From a virus (Duplodnaviria; Caudoviricetes), in the IMG/VR virus record IMGVR_UViG_3300025121_000014, positions 64,001 through 128,000 of that record: DNA of 64,000 bases; one strand, given 5' to 3'. The position numbers and the translations under genes are program-made. Below the pieces are notes generated by a model, which made no database searches, was not told the origin of the DNA, and was given only the letters and a program-made list of their open reading frames with translations. Shown piece after piece: positions 57,188-58,731 of this stretch. How positions within the stretch are numbered: the first letter of the stretch is position 1; each line of letters opens with the position of its first letter.

Positions 57188-57197
57188 TAATATATAA
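57188..57197 (+). promoter_or_regulatory. Candidate late promoter motif
   Basis: TAATATATAA, 19 nt before ATG 57217. Confidence 0.55.
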
Positions 57198-57216
57198 TAA
57201 AAACTAATATATTAAT

Positions 57217-58050
57217 ATGAAAAAATTAAAACATATAAAATTATTCGAAGAATTTGATGACTTTGAATATGTAGATGATGATGAAAATATACCAGGAAAT
57301 ACTATTGATTTGGAACAAATTAATCAAAGAGATGAACATTTTGATAGAATAAGAAAAAGTAAAGAAAGTAAACACGAAATAGCAAAACATAATCTTGAAA
57401 AATATGGAACTGTAACTTTATATGGACATCCATATATTTTTACAAGTTGTGATGTTAAGCCAGGTAAAAGAAAAGAAAAAATGTGGTATAATATAGATAT
57501 TAGTGTCGTTGGTTTATCTGAATATGAATCAGGATATAGTGGTACAGCTAGTGTAGGTATTTTAGTTAAAGTTGATCCTAATGGAAATATATTAAATATA
57601 GATACTGAATTAAATGAAAATGATTTAAATACATTAAAAGATTTTATTTCTAATGAAGCACCAGAAATAACATTAAATGAAAATTCATTTTTAGATTTAT
57701 TTGAAAGTAAAAATGCAAAACTTAAAGAAATTATGATGTACAAAGCTTATTTAAAACAAGGCAATGGTTGTGATTATACAATTGCTTGTGGTGAAACAGT
57801 TGTTAATTTAAAAGCAACTAATATGGATGATGCTAAAAAAGAAATGGAACAATTGCTTGATGAAGAATATCACGGTGATATGTCATTAGAAAGTTGTGAA
57901 ATTTTTGAAGTTAATGAAGCTGTTAGTATGGATCTTAAAGCTTTTTATTCTGATAGAACAGCAAAAATAAAAGATAAAAGAGAAGCTGATACAAAAGCTG
58001 AACGTCTAAGACAATACGAAATATTTAAAAAAGAATTTGAAAATAAATAA
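57217..58050 (+). CDS. Putative internal head protein / cargo fusion (277 aa)
   Basis: MKKLKHIKLFEEF leader; LNE motifs; internal LNENSFLDLFESKNAKLKEI followed by MMYKAY..., which looks like a captured gene start. Confidence 0.55.
   Translation: MKKLKHIKLFEEFDDFEYVDDDENIPGNTIDLEQINQRDEHFDRIRKSKESKHEIAKHNLEKYGTVTLYGHPYIFTSCDVKPGKRKEKMWYNIDISVVGLSEYESGYSGTASVGILVKVDPNGNILNIDTELNENDLNTLKDFISNEAPEITLNENSFLDLFESKNAKLKEIMMYKAYLKQGNGCDYTIACGETVVNLKATNMDDAKKEMEQLLDEEYHGDMSLESCEIFEVNEAVSMDLKAFYSDRTAKIKDKREADTKAERLRQYEIFKKEFENK
57672..57731 (+). repeat. 60-nt direct repeat, copy 1 (copy 2 at 58258-58317)
   Basis: attaaatgaaaattcatttttagatttattt(g/a)aaagtaaaaatgcaaaacttaaagaaat; one mismatch. Confidence 0.95.
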
Positions 58051-58058
58051 AATATTAA

Positions 58059-58117
58059 GTAATGGTTAAACCATTACATTTTTTACCACCAAAGATTTTC
58101 TTTTTGGTGGTTTTTTT
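58059..58117 (+). terminator. 19-bp palindrome plus intrinsic terminator, copy 1
   Basis: GTAATGGTT-A-AACCATTAC, then ACCACCAAAGA-ttttc-TTTTTGGTGGT and a T-tract. Confidence 0.85.
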
Positions 58118-58180
58118 ATATAATCTATAAAATTATAATATTGTTTATGTTAAATTAGAATAAAATTTAATTTCAAATAT

Positions 58181-58190
58181 TTATATATAA
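58181..58190 (+). promoter_or_regulatory. Candidate late promoter motif
   Basis: TTATATATAA, 23 nt before ATG 58214. Confidence 0.5.
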
Positions 58191-58213
58191 TGTAAAAAAA
58201 TATAAATAAAGAT

Positions 58214-58672
58214 ATGAAAAAACATATTGATACATTTAAAGATTTTAACGTAAAAAAATTAAATGAAAATTCATTTTTAGATTTATTTAAAAGTAAAAAT
58301 GCAAAACTTAAAGAAATAGAAAAAAAATATATAGGAAAAATTGTATCATTTAAATTAAAAACAACCAATTCAAGTGGTATAGAAATACCGTCAAATGTTA
58401 TTAGACTAAAAGGTATAGATGGTTTTTTAAAAGATTCTCCACCAATTACAAAAGATGGAACACTTAGTAGAAAAATCAAAAGTTTTTCTTATACACCATC
58501 AAAAAAAATAGAAATTGTTTTTGAATCATTAACTGGTGAACATATTATATTAAATAGTGGATATGGTTCGATTGTATATTTAGATGGTACAGGTGAATAT
58601 GCATATATGTTTCAAGTAATAGAACCAGGAGATTTAAAACCAATAATAGAAGATATTCAAACAATTAAGTAG
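58214..58672 (+). CDS. Putative internal head protein / cargo fusion (152 aa)
   Basis: MKKHIDTFKDFNVKKLNENSFLDLFKSKNAKLKEI leader, then a domain unrelated to that of 57217. Confidence 0.55.
   Translation: MKKHIDTFKDFNVKKLNENSFLDLFKSKNAKLKEIEKKYIGKIVSFKLKTTNSSGIEIPSNVIRLKGIDGFLKDSPPITKDGTLSRKIKSFSYTPSKKIEIVFESLTGEHIILNSGYGSIVYLDGTGEYAYMFQVIEPGDLKPIIEDIQTIK
58258..58317 (+). repeat. 60-nt direct repeat, copy 2
   Basis: Matches 57672-57731 at 59 of 60 positions. Confidence 0.95.
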
Positions 58673-58731
58673 TAATGGTTTAACCATTACATTTTTTTTA
58701 CCACCAAAGAGTTTCTTTTTGGTGGTTTTTT
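58672..58731 (+). terminator. 19-bp palindrome plus intrinsic terminator, copy 2
   Basis: GTAATGGTT-T-AACCATTAC, then ACCACCAAAGA-gtttc-TTTTTGGTGGT and a T-tract. Confidence 0.85.

Follow-up and report, generated by a model that had tools for sequence, protein, structure and literature searches.

A three-part fusion gene with short repeats in a T4-like groundwater huge phage, probably the scar of a recent recombination

The variable region of T4-type phages contains small non-essential genes bracketed by repeated promoter and terminator sequences, the promoter-early stem-loop (PeSL) cassettes. Recombination between these repeats explains insertions, deletions and replacements of the genes, and small circles with complete expression units are possible (Arbiol et al. 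2010, PMC2839356); Comeau et al. 2014 (PMC4122927) is a further precedent for PeSL shuffling in T4-type phages. The internal proteins of T4 are a second point of reference, a diverse set with only a targeting tag in common (PMC3012670). This tag is the capsid targeting sequence MKTYQEFIAE, and a single cut is made beside it (PMC8442874, PMC3012670). Here we analyze two adjacent genes at positions 57,188 to 58,731 of a 64,000-nt stretch of viral DNA ("the window"; positions 64,001 to 128,000 of IMG/VR record IMGVR_UViG_3300025121_000014) that share a coding repeat, R, and a terminator repeat, T. The window comes from a T4-like, uncultivated, very AT-rich (25% GC) groundwater huge phage; it covers 64 kb of a genome of ~233 kb, and our copy counts of R and T cover those 64 kb. 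A sequence-only reading had taken the repeats for the borders of a recombination-fed slot that turns small open reading frames (ORFs) into packaged, injected anti-defence effectors. We favor a different model, to which we assign a probability of roughly 0.6: the locus is a recent recombination scar that made a three-part fusion gene in a cassette-organized late accessory region, and not a dedicated cargo slot. By analogy, PeSL-mediated shuffling is its closest published parallel.

Composition of the fusion gene and origin of its linker

The two genes and their parts are these:

57217..58050 (+), gene 1: 277 residues, a three-part fusion ORF (N domain, R patch, C domain) with an isoelectric point (pI) of 4.9
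57217..57672 (+), N domain: residues 1-152 of gene 1, with leader MKKLKHIKLFEEF; a complete member of a family that is free-standing at 135-147 residues
57673..57732 (+), R1: 60-nt patch, gene 1 residues 153-172, copied from gene 2 on the evidence below; its 3' end, AAAGAAAT, lies just before an internal ATG
57733..58050 (+), C domain: residues 173-277 of gene 1, in itself an entire small-protein gene of the "CDYTIxCG" family; it begins at an ATG of its own (57733/57736) and its C-terminus is a coiled-coil helix
58214..58672 (+), gene 2: 152 residues, pI 9.3, with leader MKKHIDTFKDF, R as a predicted N-terminal helix, and a beta-rich body
58259..58318 (+), R2: the native copy of the repeat, gene 2 residues 16-35, kept in ~60%-identical orthologs

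Gene 1 is a chimera: it joins one complete gene of the N family to one of the C family, with the 60-nt patch R between them. An exhaustive HMMER search among 1.84 billion representatives returned 471 relatives of gene 1, nearly all of them ~105-residue proteins that align to residues 173-277 only. Of the 141 representatives that bear the motif C-D-Y-x-I-x-C, 119 have it within 16 residues of the N-terminus and are free-standing proteins of ~105 residues, their first residue aligning with M173/M174 of gene 1; the C family therefore normally starts at the ATG pair of the ATG ATG TAC that stands, as had been pointed out, straight after R. Contig L012, which is from an unrelated phage, has a free-standing member, and so has LR756501, an uncultured phage of 735 kb. 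Relatives of the N domain (P0092, 135 residues; P0100, 147 residues; and P0060) align to residues 5-157 and stop at about residue 150, where R begins, and in contig L014 the next gene begins 8 nt past the stop codon of the N-family gene. In the AlphaFold2 model of gene 1, the predicted local distance difference test score is ~80 at residues 32-147, below 50 at residues 150-170, which coincide with R, and above 90 in the C domain. Because the N and C families are each free-standing and R is a low-confidence linker, gene 1 comprises a whole N gene, R and a whole C gene, a combination found in gene 1 only among the 1.84 billion representatives. The proposal that the domain beginning MMYKAY is a captured, complete small gene with free-standing homologs is thus well supported. 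Its companion argument from codons fared less well: the rare codons are there (2 TAC, 1 CAC, 1 CGT and 1 GGC), but the C domain is not an outlier, with a GC content of 0.279 that equals the background and a GC content at third codon positions of 0.105, the 77th percentile of 315-nt coding windows. We accordingly rejected codon usage as a sign of foreign origin.

The two copies of R are identical at 59 of 60 positions (66 nt at 95% in the repeat search), as the sequence-only reading had it. The window holds exactly these two copies, where shuffled sequences lead one to expect 0, and their edges are sharp, with identity dropping to background within a few bases on either side. In each of three orthologs of gene 2, of ~60% identity, the R peptide occupies this same site, directly followed by a conserved E-K-K-Y and then the beta-rich body. 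The DNA of gene 2 orthologs matches the window at 77% and 72%, whereas R1 and R2 match each other at 98%. Since the orthologs keep R and the two copies are so much closer to each other, these sequence comparisons establish R as ancestral in the gene 2 family and as copied from gene 2 into gene 1 recently, with one difference in 60 nt. A hidden Markov model built from four R sequences matches the gene 1 and gene 2 families only, across the window and all loci, which speaks against R as a widespread protein module. The bodies that follow R in the two genes are unrelated, as proposed, with BLASTP returning no alignment at all. The common layout ascribed to the two genes, in which R closely follows the leader, holds for gene 2 and not for gene 1, where R sits at residues 153-172 of 277, behind the leader and a complete, separately folding domain of ~150 residues. 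A 30-nt likeness 5' of R (57617-57646 versus 58218-58247, 80%) is out of register with R and recurs in N-family homologs with the same segment; we set it aside as native N-family sequence plus chance. R has no RNA structure (z about 0) and no Rfam family, and a protein-guided search did not find the gene 2 family in IMG/VR or JGI contigs.

It is very improbable that the repeats or the fused ORF were produced by chimeric metagenome assembly across strains. Several short contigs do break off within the repeats or next to them (L002 has its start in R1, and L005 and L006 have theirs just before gene 2), but a SPAdes-style NODE contig (L001) covers the entire unit from the N domain through R, the C domain and T to gene 2, and a scaffold from a different sample (L003) covers it from 57354 on, both at 100% identity to the window. 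Because these two contigs cross the unit, we do not regard the locus as an assembly artefact; moreover, R, at 60 nt, is shorter than a typical read. Altogether, the locus is reproduced at 100% identity by three independent assemblies, its sequence is invariant across six contigs, and the gene 1 and gene 2 proteins each form a singleton 90% cluster.

The C family has two invariant cysteines, a beta-alpha-beta core and a conserved coiled-coil tail, E-Y-E-R-L-K-x-K-F (57733-58047 here; P0010-P0157; 1519-1854 in L024). It comprises hundreds of 50% clusters and is not in Pfam or PHROGs; few members have records, and by their Atlas labels the family is mostly viral. Its members can be free, leader-tagged or attached to a variety of N-terminal domains. 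Searches for function with gene 1, gene 2 and 74 family members returned zero families from Pfam and PHROGs; the sole PHROG hit, HicB-like, was rejected, as it concerns an N-terminal part of P0094 that is unrelated. Against PDB sequences, a profile search yielded chance-level matches only, fold searches (Foldseek against PDB, BFVD and AFDB clusters; VIA-align wide) gave none above chance level, and the Atlas search gave viral hypothetical clusters only. The C domain fold matches an uncharacterised AFDB cluster and, weakly, a PurS-like half-ferredoxin (Z 5.2), and the matches of its C-terminal helix are coiled coils of a generic kind. When the N domain was searched alone by a word-based method, there was no match. 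One ENA contig with an N-family homolog (L016, 635 nt) has Illumina adapter at 1-60 and 585-635 and is effectively a single library insert rather than a genomic contig.

Promoters, terminators and repeats around the two genes

The remaining elements of the two units are:

57188..57198 (+), P1: late-promoter-like motif TAATATATAAT of gene 1, from a motif scan
58052..58116 (+), T1: predicted double intrinsic terminator, hairpins 58059-58077 and 58085-58111, with a T-run after each
58129..58164 (+), a': relic between T1 and the gene 2 promoter, from the repeat search
58181..58191 (+), P2: late-promoter-like motif TTATATATAAT of gene 2; the motif also precedes the orthologs in L008 and L011
58665..58731 (+), T2: predicted double intrinsic terminator, hairpins 58672-58690 and 58700-58726, overlapping the gene 2 stop codon
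56676..56711 (+), a: 3' end of a 91-residue gene (56450-56725), reaching into the ribosome-binding region of the DUF5958 gene; source or partner of a'

The 3' repeat of palindrome plus terminator described in the sequence-only reading as ~60 nt long is real. T (~65 nt) consists of the palindrome GTAATGGTT(A/T)AACCATTAC and a T-run, followed by the hairpin ACCACCAAAGA(T/G)TTTCTTTTTGGTGGT and a second T-run; folded as RNA, either copy gives a tandem of two terminator hairpins (z-scores -4.8 and -5.6). Pattern and repeat searches find only two copies in the window, against a chance expectation of zero. In IMG/VR, JGI metagenome contigs and GTDB genomes, scans for the exact patterns of R and of the two terminator hairpins had no hits. 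A third shared segment, a and a', is identical at 33 of 36 positions, and a' can still be read as the last ten codons and stop of the 91-residue gene; it would be the footprint of a duplication or insertion of the block that contains the DUF5958 gene and gene 1.

A late motif had been noted before both genes; it lies at 57188 and 58181 and is shared with structural genes: T(A/T)ATATATAAT has nine copies on the + strand of the window (5648, 8552, 20351, 34783, 40805, 49234, 56201, 57188 and 58181), each ~30 nt before an ORF start, structural ORFs included. This motif is probably a late promoter with very short leaders, and, at the sequence level, its place ~30 nt before the two genes and before structural ORFs alike points to late expression alongside virion genes.

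The locus resembles PeSL cassettes in that small genes of a variable region lie between repeated promoter and terminator sequences. Unlike in PeSL cassettes, the promoter motif is that of the structural (late) genes and not a sigma-70-like early promoter, and promoter and terminator, 65-70 nt apart, are separate elements that do not form one composite although stem-loops are present. T has only 2 copies in 64 kb, compared with 9 of the promoter motif, and 2.8 kb of a related contig (L007) contain 3-4 copies of another repeated element. In addition, R lies inside coding sequence, where exchange would yield in-frame protein chimeras. The likeness here is known from one invariant locus, where mini-circles and replacements from relative to relative are hypothetical. 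The fusion is also reminiscent of the mosaicism in which illegitimate recombination removes a stop codon and spacer, as two genes that are separate elsewhere are joined in frame at a short microhomology; the joint here differs in being a 60-nt ectopic copy of a neighboring gene's coding sequence and not a simple deletion.

Repeats of this general kind are not confined to the window. In L007, and likewise in L008, a short element, CATAACGGTTGGGTGTAT..., follows three consecutive small genes (1404-1429, 1824-1849 and 2120-2145), and an exact 27-nt repeat (2100-2126 and 2773-2799) brackets a gene 2 ortholog. Taken with the repeats of the window, these arrangements suggest that cassette-bounding repeats are common in this phage group, and repeat-bounded small-gene units are apparently a habit of it.

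The locus lies at the border of a fibre block and a run of small genes, in a window with a GC content of 22-34% and nearly all coding on the + strand. Among the ORFs of the window are giant ones and fibre-like ones with matches to virion-structural and tail-spike families of PHROGs; no head genes were found in its 64 kb. By Pfam and PHROGs, the neighbors of the two genes are a T4 gp30.3-like gene (55278-55784, -), the DUF5958 gene (56718-57113), an RtcB RNA ligase (58789-60171) and an ExoX-like_C protein. An RtcB-guided synteny search in IMG/VR was uninformative, the nearest RtcB relatives being 35-36% identical, and the 4.2-kb locus had zero blastn matches against 50,697 phage records. Contigs identical to the window come from several groundwater metagenomes, the longest recorded being 232,944 nt, and we saw no support for the Bacteroidota host that had been supposed. 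Elsewhere in the window, a 405-residue IS605-type OrfB/TnpB gene with a Cas12f-like TNB domain (4136-5353, -) lies amid structural genes (Pfam marks on the identical contig L025), and the LamG-type fibre block contains older segmental duplications (45722-50045; 47271-47457 versus 52915-53097; 49108-49236 versus 55165-55293) at 71-82% identity, highest at gene ends and starts.

Leaders and the question of head packaging

Both proteins begin with the MKK..HI..F..F pattern that had been described, and the leaders MKKLKHIKLFEEF and MKKHIDTFKDF have the M, the K, an aliphatic residue and the spacing of F in common; leader against leader, BLASTP gives a statistically weak E of 2.1. The N family natively has a leader of the form M-K-x-(I/V)-K-x-F-(E/N)-x-(F/S). 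This leader is present in the gene 2 family too and recurs on other small ORFs of related contigs, and at least 7 C-family members with an N-terminal extension carry it directly (for example, MKHIKLFES and MKHIQSFNKS). The claim that one leader stands on non-homologous proteins is therefore borne out, and this distribution fits a portable address tag.

How far does the leader resemble the T4 capsid targeting sequence? Like T4 IPI, IPII and IPIII, otherwise unrelated small late proteins start with a short peptide, M-K-x-aliphatic/aromatic-x-x-F...E, with an (L/I)xE site nearby (LFE at residues 9-11 of gene 1 and LNE at residues 16-18 of gene 2, a short motif in either case), and one cargo family, here the C family, is found both tagged and untagged. 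The T4-like character proposed for the tag is clearest in the gene 2 orthologs, in which F-x-Q-F-(L/V)-N-E (x = G/K) just before R is close to the YQEFIAE part of the T4 tag. The differences are that both leaders here are degenerate forms of the tag, that gene 1 is acidic and 277 residues long, and that none of the T4 internal proteins is homologous to gene 1 or gene 2, the likeness here being known from sequence alone. As a small, highly basic protein only gene 2 fits (pI 9.3), both domains of gene 1 being acidic. We consider it plausible that these proteins are packaged in the head: the products of gene 1 and gene 2 are probably late proteins, and possibly head-packaged ones. Some 2.5-0.7 kb past the end of the window, L002 has further small ORFs with the late motif upstream and tag-like peptides (8809-9234 and 6951-7259), with ...NIKDFLNEQ within one ORF and MRHLKTPHEF at the start of the other.

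Scar, slot or selected fusion

We envision the following scenario. Gene 1 and gene 2 would be adjacent monocistronic late units in an accessory (hyperplastic) region, either one running from a promoter motif through the gene to a double terminator. The two units share four segments in the same order, a/a', promoter, R and T, and this collinearity suggests that they arose by a segmental duplication, or by a Campbell-type insertion, and had their interiors replaced afterwards. The R patch would have taken the place of the stop codon and spacer between two once-separate genes, N and C. Its right edge may have been joined through an AAAT microhomology with the native context of the C gene: "AAATT ATG" precedes the C gene in LR756501 and L012, and the GAAAT at which R ends overlaps this upstream context, AAATT-ATG in L012 and L024, by four bases. 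A small C protein without a tag would thereby have been joined covalently to a protein that has a leader, with a flexible, (L/I)xE-rich linker in between. R also places an AAAGA box 5 nt before the ATG at 57733, and because this box resembles the ribosome-binding regions of neighboring genes, the C protein may still be translated on its own as well. The 60-nt and 65-nt identities would then serve as direct-repeat substrates, in frame, for further exchange. A crossover between R1 and R2 would give a fusion of the N domain and R with the gene 2 body, plus a 586-bp circle carrying promoter, leader, R, C and terminator, and a crossover between T1 and T2 would remove gene 2.

Several points weigh against this scenario. 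The ancestral state is represented by distant homologs only, as no close relative was found in which an unfused N gene stands beside a C gene. No single simple event explains the duplications of R and T together, and a 4-nt microhomology is weak evidence in DNA of 25% GC. The patch is in frame on both sides, which has a chance of ~1 in 9, and the fusion could thus be selected and not a mere scar. Finally, further copies of R or T are possible in the part of the ~233-kb genome beyond the 64 kb covered.

The in-frame patch is the natural starting point for a model in which the fusion is a selected piggy-back device: the leader of the N domain would take a polyprotein into the prohead, where a protease of the T4 gp21 type would cut at the (L/I)xE sites in R, and a cut after LNE would free a C protein with the same 17-residue N-terminus as the mature gene 2 protein. 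R1 has three such sites in 20 residues, a density that 0.06% of windows reach, disorder is predicted for R, with a folded domain on either side, and the F-x-Q-F-(L/V)-N-E before R in gene 2 orthologs resembles the singly cut T4 tag. We nevertheless think this model unlikely, for the acidic gene 1 is unlike T4 internal proteins, the likeness between its leader and that of gene 2 is not significant by BLASTP, and the fusion, seen in this phage only out of 1.84 billion representatives, lacks an evolutionary track record. The slot, in which R and T act as recombination arms behind a capsid-targeting leader and small ORFs are repeatedly swapped in to become packaged, injected anti-defence effectors, seems distinctly improbable. 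It has in its favor unrelated bodies between near-identical flanks, a cargo with free-standing homologs, a late promoter motif, a leader common to unrelated proteins and borne directly by some C-family members, and the precedent of T4 internal proteins, which are likewise diverse apart from their shared targeting tag (PMC3012670). Set against this, R and T each occur as a single pair in the window and not at all in three public collections, and alternative cargo between them, looked for in IMG/VR, JGI contigs and GTDB, was not found. R belongs natively to one protein family and occurs in no other ORF of the window or loci, which does not befit a generic linker; in gene 1, 150 residues separate it from the leader; the locus is invariant in all contigs and clusters; and no anti-defence family or fold was detected for the domains in the Pfam, PHROG and fold searches. 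Repeats restricted to this place, with unvarying content, were what the sequence-only reading had itself named as refuting it, and by that measure the slot idea fails on present data. We are just as doubtful of a broader proposal, that R and T are the working arms of a cassette system in T4-like huge phages in which exchange within a cleavable linker behind the tag and within a shared terminator moves small genes in and out, possibly via circles of ~0.6 kb, and so renews the head-packaged, injected proteins.

We therefore favor the recombination scar. The locus alone does not establish a cargo-loading system; it is a variant of known phage mosaicism and cassette shuffling. The C family, with its "CDYTIxCG" motif, its hundreds of clusters and a range that extends to 735-kb phages, offers comparative evidence through its untagged, leader-tagged and fused members, as one would expect of a leader that works as a portable address label in the manner of the T4 capsid targeting sequence. 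If our reading is right, the locus would be a case, caught in the act, of huge phages building new multidomain late proteins: a short ectopic patch from a neighboring gene would weld two independent small genes together and leave behind identical flanks that invite the next exchange.

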